Positions 1,541 to 26,908 of a stretch of DNA of 64,000 nt are shown here, piece after piece. Within the stretch, counting starts at the first letter, position 1, and each line of letters begins with the position of its first letter. The DNA is from an uncultured Phocaeicola sp. (GTDB lineage: Bacteria; Bacteroidota; Bacteroidia; Bacteroidales; Bacteroidaceae): the NCBI GenBank assembly GCA_964469845.1, contig CAYXZF010000002.1:1031-65030 (forward strand). Direction: 5' to 3'. The notes beneath the pieces are model-generated. The model did not search any database, had not been told where the DNA came from, and worked only from the letters and a program-made list of their open reading frames with translations. The position numbers were made by a program, and so were the translations under genes.

Positions 1541-3997
1541 ATGGCGAAGAAAAAAACAGAAAAGGCTACAGAGCCGACAGAAATAAAGAGTAATAAAATA
1601 AAGACGTTCATCCAAAACGAAACAACCCATTTCGTCGTCGGATTGGTTTGTGTGATATTTGCCGTATATCTGCTATTGGCATTTACTTCATTCTTTTTCA
1701 CCGGAGCAGCTGACCAAAGCATATTGGACAACCAACTGCCCGGCGAACTGATGCAGACCACCAATCACGTAAAGAACTATGCCGGAGCACGCGGAGCACA
1801 GTTGGCCGAGTACCTCATCAACGGATGTTTCGGAATAGCGGCCTATTTCTTGGTACTCTGTCTGGCGGTGTCGGGCATGAGATTGATGCGTGCCTACCGC
1901 TTCCGTATTTGGAAATGGTTCATGTCTTGTACGGTAATGACTATTTGGTTCTCCATCTTTTTGGGATTTGTGTTCGAAAGTACGTTCAGCGGAACGCATG
2001 TTTATCCGGGAGGATTGCACGGCTACAATGTAAGCCGATGGTTGGCATCGCAGGTAGGCACGACTGGAGTGTGGCTTCTGTTGCTGACTACAGCCATTCT
2101 GTTTTTCGTTTACTTGAGCAGCGAAACCATGAAAGTGGTTCGTAAAGCCTTGCATCCGGAGTTCAATAAAAAACCTAAAGAACCTCAAAATCAGCCCGAA
2201 GATACAACAGCAAATCCTGACCCGGGACCGGTTGCACAGCAACCTTATACCGATCCGCAACCGATGGAAGTGATGTTTGATGTGCCAACGGAACCAAGAC
2301 AAGAGGAAAACAGTGAACCGGAAGCAGTCTTCCCCTTTGACGAACCGAAGGTGGAAGAACCCGAACCGAGTCCGACACCCGCAACGGAGAACAACGACAA
2401 AGAAGTTTCCGCCACCCCCGAACCCGACTTCATCATCACCGATGAACACACAGAAGACGATGAAGCTTACAACGGTCCGACACAGGAACCGTACAACCCC
2501 CGTCTGGATTTGGAAAACTACAAATTTCCTCCTCTCAACCTGTTGGAATCATACGATGAAAGCGACATCGCCATCGATATGGAAGAACAAAACGCCAACA
2601 AAAATCGCATCATCGAAGTGTTGCGCAACTTTGACATCGAAATCAGTTCCATCAAGGCAAGCGTAGGTCCTACCGTGACACTCTACGAAATTACTCCGGC
2701 ACCAGGTGTACGCATCGCCAAAATCCGCAACTTGGAAGATGACATCGCACTGAGCATCGCCGCCCTCGGCATCCGTATCATCGCGCCCATTCCGGGCAAA
2801 GGAACCATCGGTATCGAAGTGCCGAACGCCAAACCGCGCATTGTGCCCATGCAGTCTATCCTGAACAGCAAGAAGTTTCAAGAAACAACCATGGAGTTGC
2901 CCATCGCCTTAGGAAAGACCATTACAAACGAAGTGTATATGGTGGACTTGGCCAAGGCGCCGCACATGCTGATTGCCGGTGCTACCGGTCAAGGAAAATC
3001 CGTCGGTCTGAACGCCATCGTTACTTCCTTATTATATAAGAAGCATCCGGCGGAACTGAAATTTGTTATTGTAGACCCGAAGAAAGTGGAATTTTCGGTC
3101 TATGCACCGATAGAACGTCACTTCCTTGCCAAACTGCCCGATGGCGAAGATGCCATCATCACCGATGGTGACAAAGTGGTGCAAACACTCAACTCGCTCT
3201 GCCAAGAAATGGACACTCGATACGACTTACTGAAAAAGGCCGGATGCCGTAATATAAAGGAATATAACAGCAAGTTTATCAGCCGCAAACTGAACCCGGA
3301 AAAGGGACATCACTTCATGCCTTACATCGTGATTATCATCGATGAGTTCGGCGACCTGATTATGACCGCAGGCAAGGAAGTGGAACTGCCCATTTGCCGC
3401 ATCGCCCAGTTGGCGCGTGCCGTGGGTATCCATGCCATCATCGCCACCCAGCGACCGACGACAAACATCATCACCGGTACCATCAAGGCGAACTTCCCCG
3501 CACGTGTAGCCTTCCGGGTAGCCGCCATGATGGACTCACGCACCATTCTCGACCGTAGCGGTGCACAGCAGCTTATCGGTAAAGGAGACATGCTTTATCT
3601 GCAAGGGAATGACCCGGTGCGCGTACAATGCGCCTTTGTCGATACTCCCGAAGTAGAACGCATCGCCAACTATATCAGCAAGCAGCAAGGGTATCCGACA
3701 GCCTTTATGCTGCCCGAAGTAGAAAGCGAAGAAGGAGAAAGTTCTGTCGGCGATGTAGACATGAATCGTTTGGATCCGATGCTTCGCGAAGCCGCCGAAC
3801 TGGTTGTGGCTCACCAGCAAGGTTCCACTTCACTCATTCAGCGCAAGTTCTCCATCGGTTACAATCGGGCCGGACGCATCATGGATCAGTTGGAACGAAT
3901 CGGGGTGGTAGGTCCTTCTCAAGGAAGCAAAGCCCGCGATGTGCTTTGCATAGACTTGACTGATTTGAATATGCGTTGGAATAATATACAACAATAG
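1541..3997 (+). CDS. ftsK: DNA translocase FtsK/SpoIIIE
   Basis: N-terminal TM helices, a Pro/Glu-rich linker, Walker A GATGQGKSV, Walker B IIIDEFGDL and a C-terminal gamma wHTH (STSLIQRKFSIGYNRAGRIMDQLE). ATG at 1541 preferred over TTG at 1511. Confidence 0.93.
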   Translation: MAKKKTEKATEPTEIKSNKIKTFIQNETTHFVVGLVCVIFAVYLLLAFTSFFFTGAADQSILDNQLPGELMQTTNHVKNYAGARGAQLAEYLINGCFGIAAYFLVLCLAVSGMRLMRAYRFRIWKWFMSCTVMTIWFSIFLGFVFESTFSGTHVYPGGLHGYNVSRWLASQVGTTGVWLLLLTTAILFFVYLSSETMKVVRKALHPEFNKKPKEPQNQPEDTTANPDPGPVAQQPYTDPQPMEVMFDVPTEPRQEENSEPEAVFPFDEPKVEEPEPSPTPATENNDKEVSATPEPDFIITDEHTEDDEAYNGPTQEPYNPRLDLENYKFPPLNLLESYDESDIAIDMEEQNANKNRIIEVLRNFDIEISSIKASVGPTVTLYEITPAPGVRIAKIRNLEDDIALSIAALGIRIIAPIPGKGTIGIEVPNAKPRIVPMQSILNSKKFQETTMELPIALGKTITNEVYMVDLAKAPHMLIAGATGQGKSVGLNAIVTSLLYKKHPAELKFVIVDPKKVEFSVYAPIERHFLAKLPDGEDAIITDGDKVVQTLNSLCQEMDTRYDLLKKAGCRNIKEYNSKFISRKLNPEKGHHFMPYIVIIIDEFGDLIMTAGKEVELPICRIAQLARAVGIHAIIATQRPTTNIITGTIKANFPARVAFRVAAMMDSRTILDRSGAQQLIGKGDMLYLQGNDPVRVQCAFVDTPEVERIANYISKQQGYPTAFMLPEVESEEGESSVGDVDMNRLDPMLREAAELVVAHQQGSTSLIQRKFSIGYNRAGRIMDQLERIGVVGPSQGSKARDVLCIDLTDLNMRWNNIQQ

Positions 3998-5661: not shown

Positions 5662-8487
5662 ATGAAAAAGTTAGTCAAAAGAACTTTTGCTGCAATGGTA
5701 TTACTGGGCAGCTTTGCAACGGCATCGGCCCAGCAGCCTCAAATGCCTCCTATCCCGACAGACCCCAATGTCCGTATCGGTAAATTGGATAACGGATTGA
5801 CTTACTACATCCGCCACAATGAACTGCCCGAAAAACGGGCCGACTTCTACATCGCACAGAAAGTGGGTTCCATTTTGGAAGAAGATAACCAGCGAGGATT
5901 GGCTCACTTCCTGGAACACATGTGTTTCAATGGAACCACCCACTTCCCCGGCAAGGGTATCATCAACTGGCTGGAGACCATCGGAGTTCGCTTCGGCGAG
6001 AACTTGAACGCATACACCAGCATTGATGAAACCGTTTATAATATCGACAACGTGCCCGTCATCCGTGACGGCATTGTGGATTCCTGTCTGCTCATTCTGC
6101 ACGACTGGGCGAACGACCTGACCCTCGACCCGAAAGAGATTGATAACGAGCGCGGCGTTATCCACGAAGAATGGCGTACCGGTCAGGGTGCTATGATGCG
6201 CATGTACGAACAAGCACTTCCGAAAGCATTCAAAGGCAGCAAATACGGTCATCGCCTGCCCATCGGCACCATCGAAGTCATTGACAACTTCCCGTATCAG
6301 GCTCTCCGGGACTATTACGAAAAGTGGTATCGTCCCGACCAGCAAGGCATCGTGGTAGTGGGCGATATTGACGTAAATAAGGTAGAAACCAAAATCAAGG
6401 AAATGTTCTCTTCGATTGAAATGCCCGCCAATGCCGCCAAACGTGTGTATGAACAGATTCCCGACAACAAAGAACCCATCATCACCATTGCCAAAGACAA
6501 AGAACAACCTTCAACGATGATTTACGTCTGGCACAAGCATCCGGCTACCCCGAACGAAGCCAAAGGAAACATCGGTTATCTGGCACAGAACTATATGCTC
6601 TCCATGATTTCCCAAATGCTGAACGCCCGTTTGGATGAACTCCGTCAGACTGCCAACCCTCCTTATGTTATGGCTGCAACCGAAGATACCGACTTCTTGT
6701 TGGCGAAAACAACCCAAGCATTTGCCGGCATCGTTGTCAGCAAGGAAGACGGAATACCCACCGCTTTCTCGGCGTTGGTTCGCGAAATCGAGCGCGCCCG
6801 CAAATTCGGATTCACCGCCTCGGAATATGCCCGTGCCAAAGCTGATTATCTTCGCACCTTGGAATCGAGCTACAACGAACGCGAAAAAGTGAAGAACAAT
6901 CAGTATGTAGAAGAATACATCCGCCATTTCATTGACAACGAGCCGATACCGGGAATCGAAACCAAATATGCTTTGATGAACCAATTGGCTACAAATATCC
7001 CGGTGGAAGCTATCAACAGCCTCCTCCCGCAACTGATAACCGATGAAAACATCGTCATCAACATCTTCGGTCCGGACAAGGAAGGCATGGTCTATCCGAC
7101 GGAAGCCGAAATCCTTGACATCTTGAAGAACACCAAGGCAGAAAATATCACCGCATACGTAGACAAAGTATCGGATGAACCCTTAATGAAAGAAACTCCG
7201 ACCGCCGGTAAGGTTATAAAGACCGAAGAAGGTCCGTTCGGTTCCACGGTGTGGACACTGTCGAACGGTGTGCGTGTTGTATTGAAGCCGACCAATTACA
7301 AGGCTGACGAAATCCGTATGCGCGCTTTCAGTCCCGGCGGCTCCTCTGTATTCGGGACCAACGAACCGATTCAAGTCAAGACGCTGAATGCGGTAGCCGG
7401 TCTGGGCGGTCTGGGTAATTTCAGCAAGGTGGATTTGGAAAAGGTACTTGCCGGTAAGAAAGCAAATGTCAGTGCAAGCATCAACAGTTTGTCGGAAGGA
7501 CTGAACGGTAATTGCTCGCCCAAGGATTTTGAGACGTTGATGCAACTCACTTACCTGACATTCACTTCACCGCGTATGGATCAAGACGCTTTCGCTTCTT
7601 ACAAGAACCGTACAAAAGCCAATCTGGCCAACCAAGAAGCCAATCCGATGACTGCGTTGGTAGATACGTTGAACCAAGCCATGTATTCCAACCATCCGAT
7701 GGCTATCCGTTTGAAAGCTGACATGATTGACCAAATCAACTACGACCGCATCATGGAAATGTACAAGAATCGTTTCATGGATGCAGGCGACTTCACTTTC
7801 CTGTTTGTTGGAAACATCAACCCAAACGAAGTGAAGCCATTGATTGAAACCTACTTAGGCGGTCTGCCTACCGGCAAACGCGTAGAGAACTTCAAGGATA
7901 TTCAGTTGGACATCCGCAAAGGTGCCTATAAAAATGTCTTTGAAAAGCAGATGGAAACCCCGAAAGCAACCGTATTGCTCATCATCAGCGGCAAGTGCGA
8001 CTACAACTTGAAAAACAGTCTGATGATGACCATCCTGTCGCAAAGCATGGACATGGTTTACACCGAAGAAGTGCGTGAAAAGGAAGGGGGAACGTATGGA
8101 GTCGGTACGGGCGGAAGTCTGAGCCGTTATCCGAAAGACGATGAAGCCATCTTACAGATACAGTTTGATACAGACCCGAACCGTCTCGAACAGATGGTGG
8201 GAATCATCACCGGCGAACTGAAGAAAGTAGCCGAACAGGGGCCTAATCCCGAACATATTAATAAGGTAAAGGAATTCCTGTTAAAGAAACACCTCGAACT
8301 GGAAAAAGAGAACGGTTACTGGCTGGGAGCACTGAACAATTACTATTGGTATCATGCCGATATGGACACGAACTACGAAGAAGTGCTGAACAGCATCACA
8401 GCCGATGACATCAAAAACTTCACCAAGGCTTTACTCGAACAAGGTAACTGTATCGAAGTAAGCATGACTTGCAACGAAAAGAAATGA
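5662..8487 (+). CDS. Secreted M16 family zinc peptidase (insulinase/pitrilysin-like, PqqL-type)
   Basis: Signal peptide followed by the inverted zincin motif HFLEHMCF (HxxEH). 941 aa, two-lobed M16 architecture. Confidence 0.9.
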   Translation: MKKLVKRTFAAMVLLGSFATASAQQPQMPPIPTDPNVRIGKLDNGLTYYIRHNELPEKRADFYIAQKVGSILEEDNQRGLAHFLEHMCFNGTTHFPGKGIINWLETIGVRFGENLNAYTSIDETVYNIDNVPVIRDGIVDSCLLILHDWANDLTLDPKEIDNERGVIHEEWRTGQGAMMRMYEQALPKAFKGSKYGHRLPIGTIEVIDNFPYQALRDYYEKWYRPDQQGIVVVGDIDVNKVETKIKEMFSSIEMPANAAKRVYEQIPDNKEPIITIAKDKEQPSTMIYVWHKHPATPNEAKGNIGYLAQNYMLSMISQMLNARLDELRQTANPPYVMAATEDTDFLLAKTTQAFAGIVVSKEDGIPTAFSALVREIERARKFGFTASEYARAKADYLRTLESSYNEREKVKNNQYVEEYIRHFIDNEPIPGIETKYALMNQLATNIPVEAINSLLPQLITDENIVINIFGPDKEGMVYPTEAEILDILKNTKAENITAYVDKVSDEPLMKETPTAGKVIKTEEGPFGSTVWTLSNGVRVVLKPTNYKADEIRMRAFSPGGSSVFGTNEPIQVKTLNAVAGLGGLGNFSKVDLEKVLAGKKANVSASINSLSEGLNGNCSPKDFETLMQLTYLTFTSPRMDQDAFASYKNRTKANLANQEANPMTALVDTLNQAMYSNHPMAIRLKADMIDQINYDRIMEMYKNRFMDAGDFTFLFVGNINPNEVKPLIETYLGGLPTGKRVENFKDIQLDIRKGAYKNVFEKQMETPKATVLLIISGKCDYNLKNSLMMTILSQSMDMVYTEEVREKEGGTYGVGTGGSLSRYPKDDEAILQIQFDTDPNRLEQMVGIITGELKKVAEQGPNPEHINKVKEFLLKKHLELEKENGYWLGALNNYYWYHADMDTNYEEVLNSITADDIKNFTKALLEQGNCIEVSMTCNEKK

Positions 8488-9980
8488 TGTATCAACTCTA
8501 CAAAACTATCAAGAATAACCAGAAACTTGCAGCAAAGCGGAACCCGGCGTTCGACACGAACCGCTTTGCCAAGTTTTTGATGTATTTCATGATGATATAT
8601 TGGGCAACATTATTCCTGTTTTTGGGGGTAACGCTGCCCTTTATGTTTATGGAAATAGTTCCCAATATGGAACCTTATCATATCATGAATCAAGGATTTG
8701 TATATGTTCTGCTGGCCGATTTTCTGCTCCGTTTCATCGGACAACCTTCGGTTGGTCAGGAACTGAAGCCCTATCTGCTGATGCCTGTACGCAAGCACAA
8801 ACTTATCAGTTTGCTACTGTTCCGTTCGGCGTTAGACAGTTATAACTTTATCTGGTTCTTTGTTTATGTACCTTTTGCTTTCCTTACAATCATTCGCTTC
8901 TATGGATTCGGAGGTATGTTCCTCTACTTGCTGGGCGTATGGTTACTGATGGTGATGAACAACTATTGGTATCTGCTCTGCAAAATGCTGTTGGGAGAAA
9001 AGATCTTATGGATACTCCTGCCCATCGGCTTGTATCTGGGACTGGGCGTCGCTGAATTTCTTCCCGACGGTCTGCCGGTCAGCCGTTTCACCATGAATCT
9101 GGGCGAAGGCTTCATCGAAGGAAACCCACTCAGTTTTCTTACCGTTCTGGCTGCCATCGCAGTCTTGTTTCTCATCCATCTGAGACTCCAGCAGAAGCTT
9201 ATTTATGATGAAATCTCCAAGGCAAAAGACACACGAATGAAACGCATGTCGGAATATAAGTTCCTCGACCGCTATGGCGAAGTAGGCGAATATCTCCGAC
9301 TGGAGCTGAAATTGATAGCCCGCAACAAAACGGTGAGAACCCAGTTCCGCATGGGTTTCATCGTGATGATTGCTTTCTCCATGGTGGTTGCGTTCACCGA
9401 TTTGTATGACGGTACGGGTATGATAAACTTCATCTGCTTGTACAATTACGCCATTCTGCCCATCATGACTTTGGGACAAGTGATGAATTTCGAAGGCAAC
9501 TACATAGACGGACTAATCAGCCGAAAAGAATCCATCTATAATTTGCTTCGCGCCAAGTATTACCTGACCACGTGCATCATCTTCATCCCTTTCTTCTTCA
9601 TGCTGTTCCCTGTATGCAAAGAGAAGATAACGTTGTTAATGGCTGTGGCTTACTTAGTGTTCGTGACAGGATTTGTATTCTTCATGCTACTGCAACTGGC
9701 CGTGTACAATACACGTACCCTTCCACTGAATGCCAACCTGATGACAAGCAACAAAAGCAGTAATTGGATTCAAGGACTGATAACCGGTTGCGCCTTCGCC
9801 CTGCCTTTGCTCATCAACACCCTGCTTACCACCTTCTGTACGGAGGAAACATCGCAAATCATTCTGATTGTGATAGGGCTCGGATTCATCATCACGCACA
9901 ATCTCTGGATTAAAAACATTTACAAGCGTTTCATGAAACGCCGATATAAGAATATGGAAGAATTCCGTGCATCAAGATAG
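8484..9980 (+). CDS. Polytopic membrane protein (DUF5687-like), putative permease partner of the downstream ABC ATPase
   Basis: ORF 8469..9980. Many hydrophobic helices. ATG at 8484 overlaps the M16 stop (ATGA), indicating translational coupling. Confidence 0.7.
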   Translation: MMYQLYKTIKNNQKLAAKRNPAFDTNRFAKFLMYFMMIYWATLFLFLGVTLPFMFMEIVPNMEPYHIMNQGFVYVLLADFLLRFIGQPSVGQELKPYLLMPVRKHKLISLLLFRSALDSYNFIWFFVYVPFAFLTIIRFYGFGGMFLYLLGVWLLMVMNNYWYLLCKMLLGEKILWILLPIGLYLGLGVAEFLPDGLPVSRFTMNLGEGFIEGNPLSFLTVLAAIAVLFLIHLRLQQKLIYDEISKAKDTRMKRMSEYKFLDRYGEVGEYLRLELKLIARNKTVRTQFRMGFIVMIAFSMVVAFTDLYDGTGMINFICLYNYAILPIMTLGQVMNFEGNYIDGLISRKESIYNLLRAKYYLTTCIIFIPFFFMLFPVCKEKITLLMAVAYLVFVTGFVFFMLLQLAVYNTRTLPLNANLMTSNKSSNWIQGLITGCAFALPLLINTLLTTFCTEETSQIILIVIGLGFIITHNLWIKNIYKRFMKRRYKNMEEFRASR

Positions 9981-11226: not shown

Positions 11227-11659
11227 TACACATTACGACTCTTTCGTTTAAGGTAAATTTAATGAAAGACTTGCACTTACCCGATTTGTTTAGAATCGGA
11301 TATTTATTATACATAAAGAAGTTCAAATTTTAATGCCAAGAATCAAATCACGTAATAGGTTTCAAGTACCGATGAAGCCTATTACGTTAGCCTACGAAGC
11401 CGCTTTCGATGCCCGATGAAGCCGCTTTCATTTCTCAGTCCTTTAAAAGCCCTCCACAGCCGCTTCCTTTTCTGCTTCTTATTACCGTAGCGTTTGTACA
11501 TCTCGGGAAAGACGGGATTGGCTTTCCATTCCTCATAAAGCACATGGAGACGAATAAATTACCTTATTAAGCGAGTGTAAAGGAGCTGAAAATCTCCATA
11601 AACCTTTTGCCGTTTAACGGCTTTGTCGTATCTTCGCAATACCATTCAAATAAACACCC

Positions 11660-13090
11660 ATGATAACCGAAGAATTACAAAAACTCTATCAACTCCATAC
11701 CGGCGTACCCGCCGAAACAATCACCGAAATGCCAGCTTCGGGGTCCAACCGCCGATACTTCCGTCTGACAGGTGTGCAGAGCCTCATCGGTGTGTATGGC
11801 ACCTCGAAAGAAGAAAACGAAGCGTTTCTTTACATGGCTGAACACTTCAAAAAGAAACACCTGCCCGTGCCGCAAGTGCTGGGCGTGTCCGAAGACCATG
11901 CGTGCTATCTGCAAGAGGACTTGGGCGACACCCTCCTCTTCCACGCCATCGAGAAAGGACGCGTCACCAATTCTTTCTCGGAAGAAGAAAAGGAACTGCT
12001 CCGCAAAACCATCCGATTGCTTCCCGCCATCCAATTCGGCGGAGCGGACGGATTTGACTTCAGCCGATGCTACCCGCAACCGGAGTTTAACCGGCGTTCC
12101 ATCCTTTGGGACTTGAACTACTTTAAATACTGTTTCTTAAAAGCGACAGGAATAGATTTTCAGGAAGACCGACTGGAAGACGACTTCCAGAAGATGAGTG
12201 ATGTGCTGTTGCGGAGTTCTTCCGCCACTTTCATGTATCGCGACTTCCAAAGCCGCAACGTGATGATTAAGGACGGCGAACCGTGGTTCATCGACTTTCA
12301 AGGCGGACGAAAAGGACCGTTCTACTACGATGTGGCTTCTTTTCTGTGGCAAGCCAAAGCACGCTTTCCCGAAAGTTTGCGCAACGAATTGCTGGACGAA
12401 TACCTCAAAGCCCTCAGCAAGTACAAGCCGATAGACAGAAGCTATTTCTTCGGTCAACTGCGACATTTCGTTCTGTTCCGCACGCTGCAAGTGCTGGGTG
12501 CCTACGGATTCCGGGGATACTTCGAGAAGAAGCCGCACTTCATCCAAAGCGTACCTTTCGCCATCGAAAACCTCCGACAACTGCTGCGCGAGGACTACAC
12601 CGAATACCCCTACCTCTGCTCCGTACTGCACGAACTGACGGAACTGAAACAGTTCAAAGACGACTTGGAGAAACGGCAACTCACCGTGAAAGTGATGAGT
12701 TTTGCCTATAAGAAAGGCATTCCCGACGACCCGACAGGCAACGGCGGAGGATACGTGTTCGACTGCCGAGCGGTAAACAATCCCGGCAAATACGAGCGCT
12801 ACAAACCTTTCACCGGGCTGGATGAACCGGTCATCAAGTTTCTGGAAGATGACGGCGAAATTTTGCCCTTTTTGGAACATGCTTACGCCTTGGTAGACGC
12901 CTCGGTGCAGCGATACATGGAACACGGATTCAGCAACCTGTCCGTTTGCTTCGGATGCACCGGCGGACAACACCGTTCCGTCTATTCCGCCCAACACACG
13001 GCCGAACATCTGAACAAGAAGTTTGGCGTCAAGGTGGAACTGATTCACCGCGAACAGAACATCGAACAAACCTTTGAAGCAAGCGTATGA
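11660..13090 (+). CDS. Fusion protein: APH-family (AmgK-like) anomeric sugar kinase domain plus RapZ C-terminal domain
   Basis: The N-terminal ~340 aa carry the APH catalytic motifs DFQSRNVM and FIDFQGG. The C-terminal ~130 aa (FAYKKGIPDD..YVFDCRAVNNPG..FTGLDEPV..GCTGGQHRSV) align colinearly with the E. coli RapZ C-terminal domain (FGFKHGIP..YVFDVRFLPNPHW..MTGLDKPV..GCTGGKHRSV). Confidence 0.8.
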   Translation: MITEELQKLYQLHTGVPAETITEMPASGSNRRYFRLTGVQSLIGVYGTSKEENEAFLYMAEHFKKKHLPVPQVLGVSEDHACYLQEDLGDTLLFHAIEKGRVTNSFSEEEKELLRKTIRLLPAIQFGGADGFDFSRCYPQPEFNRRSILWDLNYFKYCFLKATGIDFQEDRLEDDFQKMSDVLLRSSSATFMYRDFQSRNVMIKDGEPWFIDFQGGRKGPFYYDVASFLWQAKARFPESLRNELLDEYLKALSKYKPIDRSYFFGQLRHFVLFRTLQVLGAYGFRGYFEKKPHFIQSVPFAIENLRQLLREDYTEYPYLCSVLHELTELKQFKDDLEKRQLTVKVMSFAYKKGIPDDPTGNGGGYVFDCRAVNNPGKYERYKPFTGLDEPVIKFLEDDGEILPFLEHAYALVDASVQRYMEHGFSNLSVCFGCTGGQHRSVYSAQHTAEHLNKKFGVKVELIHREQNIEQTFEASV

Positions 13091-19500: not shown

Positions 19501-20202
19501 ATGGTTTATTCACACGAAGTTGAACACATGTGTGTTGTAAAGAAGGGTCCTAACCATGGACCGGCTCCAATTCCTGAAGAAGGTAAGTGGGTAAAATCAA
19601 AAGAAATCAAAGACATTTCCGGTTTGACACACGGTATCGGTTGGTGCGCTCCTCAGCAGGGTGCATGTAAACTGACACTGAACGTAAAAGAAGGTGTTAT
19701 TCAGGAAGCGTTGGTCGAAACAATCGGTTGCTCAGGTATGACTCACTCTGCAGCCATGGCTTCAGAAATCCTCCCGGGCAAAACTATCTTGGAAGCATTG
19801 AACACCGACTTGGTGTGCGACGCTATCAATACAGCCATGCGCGAATTGTTCCTGCAAATTGTTTACGGTCGTACTCAGTCTGCTTTCTCAGAAGGCGGCT
19901 TGGTTATCGGTGCCGGTTTGGAAGACTTGGGTAAGGGTCTTCGCAGTCAGGTAGGTACTCTGTATGGCACATTGGCCAAGGGTCCCCGTTACTTGGAAAT
20001 GGCCGAAGGCTACATCAAGCGAGTGGCTCTTGACAAGGATGACCAGATTTGCGGTTATGAGTTCGTTCACCTGGGTAAATTCATGGACGAAATCAAGAAG
20101 GGTACAGACGCTAACGAAGCTTTGAAGAAAGTAACAGGTACTTACGGACGCTTCACAGCCGAACAGGGTGCAGTTAAACATATTGATCCACGTCACGAAT
20201 AA
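19501..20202 (+). CDS. NifU/IscU-like domain protein of unknown function (partner of the GGGtGRT protein)
   Basis: 233 aa. GACKLTLNVKEGVIQEA and ETIGCSGMTHSAAMASE resemble the first two Cys-containing segments of the IscU/NifU N-terminal scaffold. Confidence 0.7.
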   Translation: MVYSHEVEHMCVVKKGPNHGPAPIPEEGKWVKSKEIKDISGLTHGIGWCAPQQGACKLTLNVKEGVIQEALVETIGCSGMTHSAAMASEILPGKTILEALNTDLVCDAINTAMRELFLQIVYGRTQSAFSEGGLVIGAGLEDLGKGLRSQVGTLYGTLAKGPRYLEMAEGYIKRVALDKDDQICGYEFVHLGKFMDEIKKGTDANEALKKVTGTYGRFTAEQGAVKHIDPRHE

Positions 20203-20220: not shown

Positions 20221-21231
20221 ATGATTAGAGAAGTAAAATTCGAAAGCCAAGACCGTCGTATCAAGCAGATTCTCGCTGCATTGAACGAAAACGGTATTAA
20301 AGACATCGAAGAAGCTAACGCTATCTGCGACCAATATGGTTTGGATCCTTATTTGGCATGTGAAGAAACTCAGCCTATTTGCTTTGAAAACGCCAAATGG
20401 GCTTACGTGGTAGGTTGCGCCATCGCTATCAAGAAGGGCGTGAAGACAGCTGCCGAAGCTGCCGAAGCCATCGGTATCGGCTTGCAGGCATTCTGCATCC
20501 CGGGTTCTGTAGCCGATGACCGTAAAGTAGGTCTCGGACACGGTAACCTCGCAGCAATGTTGCTCCGCGAAGAAACAAAGTGTTTCGCATTCTTGGCAGG
20601 TCACGAATCATTCGCAGCAGCCGAAGGTGCCATCAAGATTGCCGCTAAGGCCGACAAGGTGCGCAAGGAACCGCTTCGCGTTATCTTGAACGGTTTGGGC
20701 AAGGACGCCGCTCAGATTATTTCACGTATCAACGGCTTTACTTACGTACAGACTCAGTTCGACTATTATACAGGCGAATTGAAAGAAGTACAACGCATCG
20801 CTTACTCTGACGGTCCCCGTGCAAAGGTAAACTGCTATGGTGCAGACGATGTTCGCGAAGGTGTAGCCATCATGTGGAAAGAAGGCGTAGACGTATCCAT
20901 CACAGGTAACTCTACCAACCCTACTCGCTTCCAACACCCGGTTGCCGGTACTTACAAGAAGGAACGCGTATTGGCTGGTAAGCCATACTTCTCAGTAGCT
21001 TCAGGTGGCGGTACAGGTCGTACTCTTCACCCGGACAACATGGCTGCCGGTCCTGCTTCTTACGGTATGACAGACACTATGGGCCGTATGCACTCAGATG
21101 CTCAGTTCGCTGGTTCTTCATCAGTTCCTGCTCACGTAGAAATGATGGGCTTCCTCGGTATCGGTAACAACCCGATGGTAGGATGTACAGTTGCTTGCGC
21201 CGTAGACGTTGCTACAGCTTTGAATAAGTAA
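20221..21231 (+). CDS. GGGtGRT family protein (function unknown)
   Basis: 336 aa containing the literal family signature SGGGTGRTLHPDN. It starts 18 nt after the NifU-like gene and is followed by a strong terminator. Confidence 0.8.
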   Translation: MIREVKFESQDRRIKQILAALNENGIKDIEEANAICDQYGLDPYLACEETQPICFENAKWAYVVGCAIAIKKGVKTAAEAAEAIGIGLQAFCIPGSVADDRKVGLGHGNLAAMLLREETKCFAFLAGHESFAAAEGAIKIAAKADKVRKEPLRVILNGLGKDAAQIISRINGFTYVQTQFDYYTGELKEVQRIAYSDGPRAKVNCYGADDVREGVAIMWKEGVDVSITGNSTNPTRFQHPVAGTYKKERVLAGKPYFSVASGGGTGRTLHPDNMAAGPASYGMTDTMGRMHSDAQFAGSSSVPAHVEMMGFLGIGNNPMVGCTVACAVDVATALNK

Positions 21232-21308
21232 TCAATACTTAACCGCAATAAAAAATCCCTGTAGCTCGATGAGTTACGGGGATTTTCTTTTTTCATTTTT
21301 GTATTAAA
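21076..21308 (+). repeat. Direct repeat copy 1: last ~155 nt of the GGGtGRT gene plus its terminator
   Basis: Aligns by eye at roughly 90 percent identity with 22469-22705 (about 20 substitutions and a 1-nt indel). Confidence 0.9.
21254..21293 (+). terminator. Intrinsic terminator of the NifU-like/GGGtGRT operon
   Basis: AATCCCTGTAGCTC / GAGTTACGGGGATT stem (with G-U pairs) followed by TTCTTTTTT. Confidence 0.75.
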
Positions 21309-21410
21309 CCGTCATCTAAAATACTTCAGTACATAGAACGACTGTTTAACAACAACCTAAACACTTACCTGTTTTTTCTTGTTATGGTTGTATTTTATAC
21401 AAGAAATCAC

Positions 21411-21418
21411 TAATTTTG
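21411..21418 (+). promoter_or_regulatory. -7 box TAATTTTG for the inserted three-gene cassette
   Basis: Exact TAnnTTTG match about 60 nt upstream of the ATG at 21479. Confidence 0.5.
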
Positions 21419-21478
21419 CATAGAATAAAAATTCAATCATGAAGTGCGAAATCGCTGTTTAATTGGAAATACCCATTT

Positions 21479-21718
21479 ATGGAAGAAATCAGAAAAATAT
21501 CGAAAGAGCAAATTGTAATGTCGTTTGTAGCCACTTGCATTGAAACAACTGCAAGACAACTGAACACAACTTACAATGAGATATTCCAACGAATGGAACG
21601 TGTTGGTTTGATTGAAAATTATATCATACCTAATTACGAACCTCTCCATAGCGAAAGCCGTGAAGTTCTGGCAGAACGTATCATTGAATGTTTAAACAAC
21701 TGGGAAAATAGATTATGA
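21479..21718 (+). CDS. Small helical protein, DUF3791-like (copy A)
   Basis: 79 aa. Its stop overlaps the next start (ATGA at 21715-21718). Family name is by recollection of Bacteroides/Clostridia annotations, where it pairs with DUF3990. Confidence 0.65.
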   Translation: MEEIRKISKEQIVMSFVATCIETTARQLNTTYNEIFQRMERVGLIENYIIPNYEPLHSESREVLAERIIECLNNWENRL

Positions 21719-22206
21719 ATACAATTGTAGTATATCACGGAGGTACAGAAAAAATAGAAAGCCCTATTTGCAAACTTGGACGAAAGAATCTGGATTTCGG
21801 CCAAGGTTTCTACATTACCAGTTTACGTAAACAAGCAATCACATGGGCAAACAGCATGGCTGGAAACAGAAATATGCCTGCCGTGCTAAACCGATATAAA
21901 CTGGATAGAGATAGCATTTTGAGAGAAGCCAAATGTAAAATTTTTAAGGCATACGATAAAGAATGGCTTGAATTTATCGTTGGCAATCGTACAGGACAAA
22001 ACTTAGCAAAGGATTATGATTATGTAGAAGGCGGTGTAGCAAATGACCGTGTTATTGATACAATCAATTTATATATTGCCGGATTGATAGATTTCGGTTC
22101 TGCATTGAGAGAACTGGCGAAACACCAACCCAACAATCAAATATGTATGCTCAACCAAGAACTCGTAAACAAGTATCTCACTTATGATGGAACAGAAGAA
22201 TTATAA
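21715..22206 (+). CDS. DUF3990-like protein with a PARP/ART-like H-Y-E motif pattern
   Basis: 163 aa. VVYHGG (H8), DFGQGFYITS (Y33) and DYVEGG (E105) occur in the order expected for an H-Y-E ADP-ribosyltransferase fold. Confidence 0.7.
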   Translation: MNTIVVYHGGTEKIESPICKLGRKNLDFGQGFYITSLRKQAITWANSMAGNRNMPAVLNRYKLDRDSILREAKCKIFKAYDKEWLEFIVGNRTGQNLAKDYDYVEGGVANDRVIDTINLYIAGLIDFGSALRELAKHQPNNQICMLNQELVNKYLTYDGTEEL

Positions 22207-22435
22207 TAATCCTACCAAGTCACCGGTCATTCAGGAAATCATAATGAGCAATAGAATTGGTGCCATCAGTATTCTCTTGGCAGAACAGCTTAATATCAAT
22301 AGTGTTAAAGCACTAAAACTGTTCTATATGAGCCAAACATGTGCCAACTTACATGATAAATCAACCGGACTCTATCTGTATGGTGATTTATATGTTGTTG
22401 ATGAGTTTATAAGAGAAATGGAGAATAGGCAATAA
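22184..22435 (+). CDS. Small helical protein, DUF3791-like (copy B)
   Basis: 83-aa ORF overlapping the previous gene by 23 nt; an alternative start is MSNRIGAIS at 22244. Weak similarity to copy A (I[IV]MS..A.QLN..E.I.E). Confidence 0.6.
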   Translation: MMEQKNYNNPTKSPVIQEIIMSNRIGAISILLAEQLNINSVKALKLFYMSQTCANLHDKSTGLYLYGDLYVVDEFIREMENRQ

Positions 22436-22468
22436 TCATGCGACTTATTCCGAACACATCAAATAAAA

Positions 22469-22625
22469 ACTATGGGTCGTATGCACTCCGACGATCAGTT
22501 TGCCGGTTGTTCATCAAGTACCTGTTCACGTAGAAATGATGAGCTTCTTGGGCATCGGCAACAACCCGATGGTAGGTTGTACAGTAGCTTGCGCCGTAGA
22601 CGTTGCTACTGCTTTGAATAAGTAA
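22469..22625 (+). pseudogene. Degraded duplicate of the 3' end of the GGGtGRT gene
   Basis: Homologous to 21076-21231. It has no upstream coding sequence and carries a 1-nt insertion (TCATCAAGTACC versus TCATCAGTTCC) that breaks the frame after ..FAG.SS. Confidence 0.85.
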
Positions 22626-22647
22626 TCAATACTTAATCGCAATAAAA

Positions 22648-22686
22648 AATCCCTGTAGCTCGATGAGTTATAGGGATTTTCTTTTT
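22648..22686 (+). terminator. Duplicated intrinsic terminator, now closing the inserted cassette
   Basis: AATCCCTGTAGCTC / GAGTTATAGGGATT stem followed by TTCTTTTT. Confidence 0.65.
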
Positions 22687-22749
22687 ATATTTTGTCGCAT
22701 TAAAAATAGGCTTTGTACCCTTTTGTCTTTTGAATGAACACTTCACCGA

Positions 22750-25429: not shown

Positions 25430-26908
25430 TCATTCCGGCATGGCGGGGAGTTCCCAACCGGTGCGGTATTTGTGCTTAATCAAATCGGCGGCAAACTCGC
25501 GCGCATTGACGGGTTCTGTCCAAGTCTTGTTGAAAGTGGGATGACCGTCCTTGATACTGAAGCCGTCCTTGATAACGGTGCGAATGGTCGCATCGGCCGG
25601 AATGTTGGTGAATTCCATTTTTTCGCCGTCCCAATGCAGTTCCTGATTCAAGCCTTGCAGACGAACAGCCACGACACCCATTACCACCATTTCATTGAAC
25701 GGACCGGCTTCTGAAAAGTCGGATGCACTCGGCACACGGACTTCGGGCGCTTCCTTACAGGCACGTACCCAGTCTTGCTGGTGCGACAAAGTCACCTCGC
25801 GACACAAGTTGGGAACTTCGGGCTTACGACCGGAGAGCAAATACGGTTCCGCACCGTAGCAACCGCAAATCAGTGTATCCTTGGTTCCGTGGAAAATCAC
25901 GGCACCCCCCTGTACATTCAAGTCTACACCGGCAGGCAAACCGGCAGGACGTTCGGGCTTCAAGCCGCCGTCGTACCAATAAACTTCCACTTCGGGCATC
26001 GCAACCTTCGGCATATTGTCGCGTGCCGGGAAGGTAAACTTCACCACCTGTGCGTTCGGACAAGACTCAGTCAGCAGCAAAGTGGAAGAACCTTGAATCT
26101 TGGTGGGGTAGCCCAACTTCAACGCCTTAAAGACCGGATGCAAAATATGGCAAGCCATATCCCCCAACGCACCTGTACCGAAATCCCACCAGCCACGGAA
26201 GTTCCACGGAGTATAAATAGGATTGTAAGGACGCATCGGAGCCGGACCGATAAATGCGTCCCAATTTAAAGTGGACGGCACAGCCGGCGTTTCGGCAGGT
26301 CGCTCCAAACCTTGCGGCCAAATAGGTCGGTCGGTGAAAGCCTCCACCTTGGTGATTTCGCCGATTTCGCCGTTCCAAATCCAATTACAAGCCCGACGTA
26401 CGCCTTCACCGGAAGCACCCTGATTACCCATTTGAGTAGCCACCTTGTGCTTGGCGGCCAATTTGGTAAGCAAGCGTGACTCGTAAACGGTATGCGTCAG
26501 AGGTTTTTCGCAATAGACATGCTTTCCGGCAGCGATAGCTTCGGCACAAATGATGGCATGTGTATGGTCGGCCGTGGCACAAACCACCGCGTCACACTGA
26601 TCTAACAATTCGGCGAACATCACCTTATAGTCATTGTATTTCTTTGCATTCGGATAGCGTTTGAAAACAGGGTCGGCATACTTCCAATCGACATCGCACA
26701 AACCGATAATTTCTTCTGTTTCCAAGCCGCGGAGCACAGCGGCACCACGTCCGCCGATACCTACACCTAAAATTTTCAATTTACCTTCTTTTACCTTTTT
26801 CTTCTTCGCATCTACGCCTGCGAATACACTGCCCGGAGTCATGGATAAACCGATGGCAGCCGCCGTTCCGGCTTTAAGGAACGATCTTCTAGACATTTCT
26901 TTTCCCAT
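25430..26908 (-). CDS. Tat-exported Gfo/Idh/MocA family oxidoreductase (candidate glycoside 3-dehydrogenase)
   Basis: Twin-arginine signal MSRRSFLKAGTAAAIGLS..FAG followed by a Rossmann motif ILGVGIGGRG. 492 aa; the alternative start is at 26896. Confidence 0.85.
   Translation of the reverse strand: MGKEMSRRSFLKAGTAAAIGLSMTPGSVFAGVDAKKKKVKEGKLKILGVGIGGRGAAVLRGLETEEIIGLCDVDWKYADPVFKRYPNAKKYNDYKVMFAELLDQCDAVVCATADHTHAIICAEAIAAGKHVYCEKPLTHTVYESRLLTKLAAKHKVATQMGNQGASGEGVRRACNWIWNGEIGEITKVEAFTDRPIWPQGLERPAETPAVPSTLNWDAFIGPAPMRPYNPIYTPWNFRGWWDFGTGALGDMACHILHPVFKALKLGYPTKIQGSSTLLLTESCPNAQVVKFTFPARDNMPKVAMPEVEVYWYDGGLKPERPAGLPAGVDLNVQGGAVIFHGTKDTLICGCYGAEPYLLSGRKPEVPNLCREVTLSHQQDWVRACKEAPEVRVPSASDFSEAGPFNEMVVMGVVAVRLQGLNQELHWDGEKMEFTNIPADATIRTVIKDGFSIKDGHPTFNKTWTEPVNAREFAADLIKHKYRTGWELPAMPE

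Follow-up and report, generated by a model that had tools for sequence, protein, structure and literature searches.

We examined a 64,000-nucleotide (nt) stretch of DNA from an uncultured Phocaeicola sp. (contig CAYXZF010000002.1), referred to here as the window, on whose numbering all coordinates are given. At 21479-22435 the window carries a cassette of three small genes, A, B and C, and the evidence presented below makes it reasonably probable (about 0.6) that B is a toxic ADP-ribosyltransferase (ART) with a His-Tyr-Asp (H-Y-D) triad, that it is held inactive by a co-transcribed pair of DUF3791 proteins, A and C, and that the cassette persists by addiction, by abortive-infection defence or by both. 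The features on which this proposal turns are the following:

21479-21718, forward strand: gene A, a 79-amino-acid (aa) DUF3791 protein, proposed antitoxin or immunity partner, ATGA-coupled to B
21715-22206, forward strand: gene B, a 163-aa DUF3990 protein with an ART fold, proposed toxin, predicted catalytic residues H8, Y33 and D102
22184-22435, forward strand: gene C, an 83-aa protein, likely a divergent DUF3791 paralogue, proposed second partner of B
21411-21418, forward strand: putative -7 promoter box TAATTTTG (TAnnTTTG, Bacteroidetes type) for the A-B-C operon

In the proposed mechanism the block would function as a self-contained, mobile, three-component operon of the toxin-antitoxin type. 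B would be a compact ART-fold enzyme of the diphtheria-toxin/PARP/Arr class, with a predicted nicotinamide adenine dinucleotide (NAD+) site formed by H8, Y33 and D102, and free B would be toxic, either through ADP-ribosylation of an essential target or through consumption of NAD+. A and C, encoded on one transcript with B and coupled to it in translation, would bind it jointly and keep it inactive, either as a bipartite antitoxin or immunity pair or as an antitoxin plus a sensor. The cassette would pay its way by stabilising its carrier DNA (addiction), by defending against phages through abortive infection, or by both. What the analysis shows is the structure of the genes, their families, the fold of B, its conserved residues, the co-occurrence and fusions of the three proteins, the insertion and the allele lacking it; the toxicity of B, its neutralisation by A and C, the enzyme reaction with its target, and the biological role we infer.

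The family assignment of B is clear. It matched Pfam DUF3990 (PF13151) at 142.6 bits (E=9.8e-42), with residues 5-153 aligned to positions 2-148 of the 152-position profile; the Pfam gathering scores are 32.2 bits for DUF3990 and, for two families that figure below, 25 bits for DUF3791 and 31.2 bits for ART-PolyVal. More than 2,000 homologues of B were found, the closest ones in Bacteroidales. An AlphaFold2 model of B built on an alignment of 53 sequences reached a mean predicted local distance difference test score (pLDDT) of 96.4 and a predicted template-modelling score (pTM) of 0.89. It replaced a first model, built on 24 close relatives of 73-88% identity, which reached a pLDDT of 72.6 and gave no meaningful Foldseek matches. 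When the final model was compared with the PDB by Foldseek, the top 20 matches were all ART-fold proteins. The best was ParT (6d0i_C; E=7.3e-4, probability 1.00, template-modelling (TM) score 0.52), and the others included MbcT (6fkg, E=0.058), PltA, A subunits of typhoid/pertussis-like toxins, PARP3, Arr (2hw2, 20% identity over 66 columns, E=0.32) and tankyrase-2; BC2332 followed at ranks 22-23. Among viral models the first match was an unnamed close relative (E=8e-13), and the best named matches were mostly ART-PolyVal domains of phage polyvalent proteins, those in the top four being phage ART-PolyVal or large-polyvalent proteins (E=3e-5 to 4e-4).

Sequence searches pointed in the same direction. 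The Pfam profile of ART-PolyVal (PF18760) matched 21 of the 53 homologues, all below its gathering score (best E=2.9e-4; best score among relatives 24.8 bits), and that of PARP matched two; B of the window itself gave no match to ART-PolyVal at E<=0.1, and Pfam RES, DarT and Arr-ms matched none of the 53 homologues. ART-PolyVal is thus the nearest named family of B both by sequence and among viral-model structures, but it is a domain of very large multidomain proteins, whereas B stands alone with two small partners. Searches of PDB sequences with B and with the profiles of B, A and C returned no real relatives, NCBIfam held no model for A, B or C, and a search of PHROGs gave a single weak match, to a 1,664-aa family of unknown function. 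As judged from its model, B is an ART-fold protein. The first-pass annotation of this DNA, made from the letters alone, had called the middle protein ART-like, and the model, the Foldseek list and the ART-PolyVal matches all agreed with it.

To locate the active site we used the alignment of the 53 full-length representatives, which share 30-47% identity. Six positions of B (H8, D27, F32, Y33, W84 and G106) were invariant in all of them, and D102, D111, R92 and Q142 were each kept in 52 of 53. H8 is followed by G in 45 and next by S in 45 of the 53 homologues, forming an HG[ST]-type motif (YHGS) that in the model lies at the end of β1, with H8 at the C-terminal end of strand 3-10. Y33 falls within strand 32-35, in the motif GFYxT, and D102 stands directly before strand 103-106, in the motif YD[IV][IV]. 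The H8, Y33 and D102 segments parallel the PARP motifs HGS, YFA and YNE (PMC7955679), and an H-Y-D triad is established for Arr (PMC8120803). The earlier annotation had pointed to the segments VVYHGG, DFGQGFYITS and DYVEGG, all of which are present, and had read from them an H-Y-E triad. Its His and Tyr are borne out by their invariance, while its Glu is not: position 105 is I in 25 homologues, E in 13 and other residues in the remainder. Because D102 is kept in 52 of 53 homologues at a strand start and E105 in only 13, the triad of B is probably H8, Y33 and D102, as in Arr. That B is a PARP-type enzyme with E105 as its catalytic residue is very improbable on these counts, although the window protein has E105 and its close relatives, of 73-100% identity, all keep it.

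ParT, the best PDB match, is a small ART toxin of ~160 aa, as B is proposed to be, and a small partner neutralises it by binding to it directly (PMC8120803). Its RES domain carries an R-Y-N-type site where B would have H-Y-D; ParS is a single Xre-like antitoxin, whereas the cassette encodes two DUF3791 proteins. The position at β1 that is Arg in RES toxins is an invariant His in B and its homologues, and the likeness to RES toxins is in fold only. With the wider Arr/PARP/diphtheria-toxin class B shares the order and spacing of the motifs, namely the HG[ST], the aromatic strand with the Tyr and, in D102, the predicted acidic residue at a strand start. It differs in having no membership of the class at the sequence level, in lacking the regulatory and helical domains of PARPs, and in its toxin-antitoxin-like context.

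These comparisons bear on the possibility that B degrades NAD+, as a glycohydrolase or an MbcT-like phosphorylase, and arrests cells by NAD+ depletion, as several abortive-infection systems do, with A and C as its inhibitors. MbcT is an NAD+ phosphorylase, and it is among the best structural matches of B; B is also very small, with no obvious domain for target recognition, and the module is listed in PADLOC as a defence candidate. The conserved residues, however, are the H-Y-acid of transferases such as PARP and Arr and not those of a RES or R-Y-N site, no RES match was obtained among the 53 homologues, and the nearest family by sequence is ART-PolyVal. We consider such a degradative role unlikely.

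Turning to the partners, A matched Pfam DUF3791 (PF12668) at 57.3 bits (E=1.6e-15), and C of the window matched no Pfam family at E<=0.1. A and C showed no similarity to each other by direct BLAST, their profiles never matched one and the same open reading frame, and their comparison by hhalign was unstable, giving 52% in one run and 5% in another; we therefore relied on bridging members and fusions. The protein at the C position of a module on a P. distasonis plasmid (L114, 68 aa) matched the profile of C (1.5e-26) and also Pfam DUF3791 at 35.7 bits, above its cutoff. Weak DUF3791 matches were seen in five of 41 members of the C family, and the tail of a B~C fusion protein, P0128, also matched DUF3791 weakly. 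Since the bridging member matches both profiles, C is likely a divergent DUF3791 paralogue by transitivity. The label DUF3791/DUF3990/DUF3791 given to the module in the first-pass annotation therefore holds for A by Pfam and probably for C by bridging members. Its further remark that the two flanking proteins are weakly similar stands as regards family, and not as regards direct similarity by BLAST.

Natural fusions join these proteins in two ways. Six representatives have B fused to C, and in pBF9343 of B. fragilis the gene upstream of DUF3990 encodes a 149-aa protein made of a C-like domain (residues 4-81) and an A-like domain (residues 78-148). Together, the B~C and the C~A fusions suggest a single physical complex of all three proteins. 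A different set of joined proteins (P0126, P0174 and P0154; 130-141 aa) consists of an N-terminal part of the A family and a C-terminal part of B, starting at about residue 24-74, and P0126 and P0174 lack the His and Tyr motifs of B. Toxin-inactivating natural deletions, or artefacts of gene calling or assembly, may account for them. No macrodomain was matched in A or in the C family. The cassette, as proposed, resembles DarT-DarG, where a toxin of the ART type also belongs to a toxin-antitoxin or phage-defence module, but it departs from that system in its partners: DarG reverses the modification as a macrodomain hydrolase, whereas the cassette has neither a macrodomain nor a DarT match.

The three tightly packed open reading frames described earlier could be read directly from the sequence: the stop of A and the start of B overlap as ATGA at 21715-21718, and the overlap of B with C is 23 nt long. 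It had also been suggested that C might restart at an ATG at 22244; the overlap is there, but the restart is unlikely, because the Met at this position is variable (M in 19, L in 12 and R in 10 of 41 homologues) and residues 16-20 of C, which lie upstream of it, are conserved as amino acids in the same homologues. TAnnTTTG is the -7 consensus of Bacteroides promoters. The -7 box proposed for the operon is present at its place, and 68 of 88 distinct modules had a TAnnTTTG box no more than 150 nt upstream of A, mostly 20-50 nt before the start codon, compared with 7.5% of random 150-nt windows. A promoter of its own is thus a feature that extends beyond this window, and A-B-C modules generally seem to bear one of the Bacteroidetes type. 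The DNA of the module is also AT-richer than its surroundings, as had been noticed: the GC fraction is 0.33-0.38 across 21200-22400, 0.47-0.52 in the adjacent gene on the left and 0.45-0.52 further to the right.

To see how consistently the three genes travel together, we surveyed 97 loci with 100 DUF3990 genes whose products are 44-100% identical to B. The order A-B-C was found for 89 of the 100, about half of the exceptions lying at contig ends, and A was upstream of B for 95; the reading frames of A, B and C overlap. The module occurs at several unrelated chromosomal sites, and between sites the DNA homology is confined to the coding block (21477-22436). In L004-L007 it adjoins a variable island with DndB/helicase/methylase or BREX-type genes, whereas the window module is not in a defence island. 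A tblastn search found DUF3990 in 88 plasmid records, 28 of them conjugative and 10 mobilizable, including the pBF9343 family, and in only seven phage records. Compact, overlapping, co-oriented genes on mobile DNA, as seen here, are what characterises type II-like toxin-antitoxin systems. The view of this locus as resembling a toxin-antitoxin or defence module gains from the plasmid carriage, from the position beside defence islands and from its status as a PADLOC candidate.

Several individual records add to this picture of distribution. DUF3990-like proteins with 29-44% identity to B are encoded in four uncultured gut Bacteriophage sp. records (MT837818.1, MT835728.1, MT838387.1 and MT836695.1) and in Geobacillus virus E3 (25691-26119). 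L014 holds two A-B-C modules about 4 kilobases (kb) apart, at 2849-3752 on the reverse strand and at 7766-8721; the second, whose proteins have 74, 157 and 70 aa, is divergent, with a transposase of the IS1595 family beside it. In the conjugative plasmid pBF9343 (L112, NC_006873.1, 22340-24400) a hypothetical gene of 86 aa comes immediately after the module and overlaps a gene of the zeta-toxin family, so that two toxin-type modules, DUF3990 and zeta toxin, stand side by side. An 86-aa gene also follows DUF3990 in the 7.7-kb P. vulgatus plasmid pMG01-10_1, where the next gene is an unnamed hypothetical one.

The flanks of the module bear on how it came to its present site. Upstream of it lie a gene for a DMP19-like protein (PF14300; 18794-19300, reverse strand), one for a weakly NifU-N-like protein (19501-20202, forward strand) and one for a GGGtGRT protein (PF14057; 20221-21231, forward strand); the last two, adjacent and on the same strand, may be a conserved pair of unknown function. 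Direct repeats of about 225 nt, 85-92% identical, flank the module, and each holds the last 156 nt of the GGGtGRT gene and its terminator:

21076-21299, forward strand: repeat copy 1, the GGGtGRT gene's functional 3' end (stop codon at 21231) with its terminator, attL-like
21252-21286, forward strand: terminator-like hairpin of the GGGtGRT gene in repeat copy 1, with a 16-bp stem, a 3-nt loop and a T-run
22469-22693, forward strand: repeat copy 2, a frameshifted 3' remnant of the GGGtGRT gene with a terminator, attR-like
22646-22680, forward strand: terminator-like hairpin in repeat copy 2, the first terminator 3' of gene C

The terminator that the first-pass annotation had assigned to the module does exist, at 22646-22680, but it belongs to the duplicated 3' end of the upstream gene. 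Five contigs (L098-L102), which share ~98% identity with the window and encode the very same GGGtGRT protein, are free of the module (L098:5830-6145), with tatC following 127 nt after the GGGtGRT gene. From this module-free allele it follows that the window carries a 1,394-nt insertion, in line with the earlier proposal of horizontal acquisition.

The two repeat copies differ in their histories. Over the columns shared by the two copies and the module-free allele, copy 1 has 12 unique differences, those in coding sequence all being silent, copy 2 has nine and the module-free allele four. Copy 2 equals the module-free allele at all 12 sites unique to copy 1, and its own changes include a +1 A frameshift and non-silent substitutions. 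We did not take copy 2 as simply native from this three-way alignment, as the counts of 12, 9 and 4 are too star-like. Between the GGGtGRT genes of the window and of L098, mismatches number 11 in 156 inside copy 1 (all silent) versus 14 in 855 upstream of the repeat (Fisher p=5e-4). In more distant Bacteroides lineages the silent-site pattern of copy 1 is the native one of their GGGtGRT genes, which are 83-98% identical to copy 1 versus 77-87% to copy 2, and always nearer to copy 1. Given the excess of silent changes over the rest of the gene, and the metagenome alleles, copy 1 probably came in with the element and replaced the gene end, copy 2 being the displaced native end, now decaying. A search for the donor lineage of copy 1 did not find it, the best full-length matches being 91-92% identical.

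Three metagenome contigs have the same gene end duplicated around other inserts (L122:359-576 and 11593-11700; L117:1-163 and 2235-2452). In L121 and L122 the insert is an 11-kb element that opens with a complete tyrosine integrase, and in L117 it is a 2.1-kb remnant holding only an Arm-domain fragment of an integrase and an MNT/HepT toxin-antitoxin pair. The right-hand junctions of all three fall within ~25 nt of one another in the GGGtGRT gene. Because one gene end is duplicated around different inserts with near-coincident junctions, the 3' end of the GGGtGRT gene behaves, as far as its sequence tells, as a recurrent attachment site for integrative elements. The cassette of the window would then probably be the last surviving cargo of a decayed integrative element, and survival of the cargo alone would be the expected fate of an addictive module of the toxin-antitoxin type. 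The window insert contains no integrase remnant, and its inner ends share no sequence with those of the L117 and L122 elements, so that a common element family is not supported.

Other observations may bear on recombination. TATGACAGACACTATGGG is a candidate sequence for recombination by the L122-type integrase. Of the 89 other A-B-C modules, twelve (in L021, L024, L025, L029, L034, L041, L047, L068, L079 and L085) stand between direct repeats of local sequence, 19-215 nt long, and several of these repeats contain the TAnnTTTG box, so that a copy of the promoter lies at either side of the module. In L002 (Logan SRR19576311), positions 780-1100 hold in order B, C, a hybrid repeat (copy 2 on the left, copy 1 on the right), the upstream region and A. 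This may be the junction of an excised circle or of a tandem array, a mis-join of the k=31 assembly being equally possible; since the switch between the copies lies inside a shared stretch of ~33 nt, which a mis-join explains equally well, we did not count L002 as evidence.

Much of this had been anticipated in databases. Pfam already places DUF3990 in the ART clan (PMC7955679), and the domain has been annotated, only, at the C-terminus of Rhs effectors belonging to type VI secretion systems (T6SS) in Serratia and Enterobacter (PMC4524185, PMC10763514). The enzyme-domain family is thus common to the cassette and to these effectors, but in the effectors the domain is delivered to other cells and an immunity gene lies downstream, whereas B is predicted to be an intracellular, stand-alone protein. 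In PADLOC-DB the three proteins match the components of one system, PDC-M13: A matches PDC-M13A (6.6e-15), B PDC-M13B (1.2e-48) and C PDC-M13C (9.5e-10), adjacent and on the same strand. PDC systems are 145 untested phage defence candidates proposed by 'guilt-by-embedding', taken from genes lying within BREX, DISARM and type I restriction-modification (RM) loci (bioRxiv 10.1101/2024.01.29.577857). The window locus is an instance of PDC-M13, with the same gene order and protein sizes and no difference, and PDC-M10 is a two-gene relative of it. PDC-M13 was counted 3,324 times in rumen genomes and metagenome-assembled genomes, among the most frequent PADLOC calls (PMC13356809). Both the ART idea and the candidate system are therefore already in databases, and the idea is not new. 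Within the literature searched, no experimental work on DUF3791 or DUF3990 was found, in accord with the earlier statement that neither family has an experimentally defined function; the accompanying description of the cassette as uncharacterised is right as to experiment and overstated as to novelty, given the Pfam clan, the Rhs effectors and PDC-M13.

Some points weigh against our proposal that B is an H-Y-D toxin restrained by A and C. D102 was preferred to D111 (52/53) or D27 (53/53) on the grounds of motif and strand position, and the structural matches are moderate, with TM scores of ~0.5 and a single PDB match at E<1e-3. The Rhs proteins that end in DUF3990 are annotated only in the papers cited (PMC4524185, PMC10763514), and PDC-M13 is explicitly an untested candidate (bioRxiv 10.1101/2024.01.29.577857). 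A and C have no recognisable DNA-binding domain of the kind typical of many type II antitoxins. Finally, it would be unusual for a labile antitoxin to be fused permanently, as C is in B~C proteins, and this better fits a regulatory or sensor domain.

The last point leads to another division of labour, in which only one of the small proteins is the antitoxin and the other an adaptor, chaperone or phage sensor, the whole being a tripartite defence system rather than an addiction module. In some lineages B is stably fused to C while A stays separate upstream, in the usual position of an antitoxin, and CapRel is a known fused toxin-antitoxin sensor. The modules beside DndB/helicase and BREX-type genes in L004-L007 suit defence, as does the origin of PDC candidates in BREX, DISARM and type I RM loci (bioRxiv 10.1101/2024.01.29.577857). 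However, the fusion of C-like and A-like domains in pBF9343 suggests that the two act jointly on B, the abundance of the module on plasmids and as attachment-site remnants fits addiction, and the window module lies outside any defence island; we give this arrangement a low probability. We see hardly any chance that B is an ART without toxicity that acts on a small molecule, a resistance or detoxification enzyme like Arr with A and C as regulators: the predicted triad, the similar size (~140 aa for Arr) and the presence of Arr among the Foldseek matches would agree with it, but Arr is a single-gene determinant whereas the module has two obligatory, coupled partners and fusions, DUF3990 serves as the C-terminal domain of Rhs effectors, and Arr-ms matched none of the 53 homologues.

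Within the proposal that A and C together restrain a toxic B, a more far-reaching version is that the cassette is a working abortive-infection system of new design, in which a heterodimer of DUF3791 proteins would act as clamp and sensor on a minimal H-Y-D ART, and a phage cue would free the enzyme to ADP-ribosylate a target new to ART toxins, for example a nucleic acid or a translation factor. We put this forward tentatively, as a possibility that falls well short of even odds.

ART toxins with antitoxins, such as DarTG, ParST and MbcTA, are an established theme, and the system described here would be an uncharacterised three-component variant of it, abundant and experimentally tractable. Conceptually it is no surprise, since the fold and the candidate system alike are already marked in databases. 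If our proposal is true, the cassette would add to the theme a different enzyme lineage (DUF3990, with H-Y-D) and an unusual pair of DUF3791 partners. The handles for experiments are residues H8, Y33 and D102 (not E105), the natural fusions, and the pair of alleles with and without the insertion. The module is very abundant in gut and rumen Bacteroidales and is carried by widespread conjugative plasmids of the pBF9343 type, and for this reason knowledge of its target and its trigger would bear on plasmid maintenance and phage resistance in these bacteria, a dominant group of the human microbiota. Should the abortive-infection reading be true, the module would represent a major unstudied mechanism of immunity or addiction in the gut microbiota.

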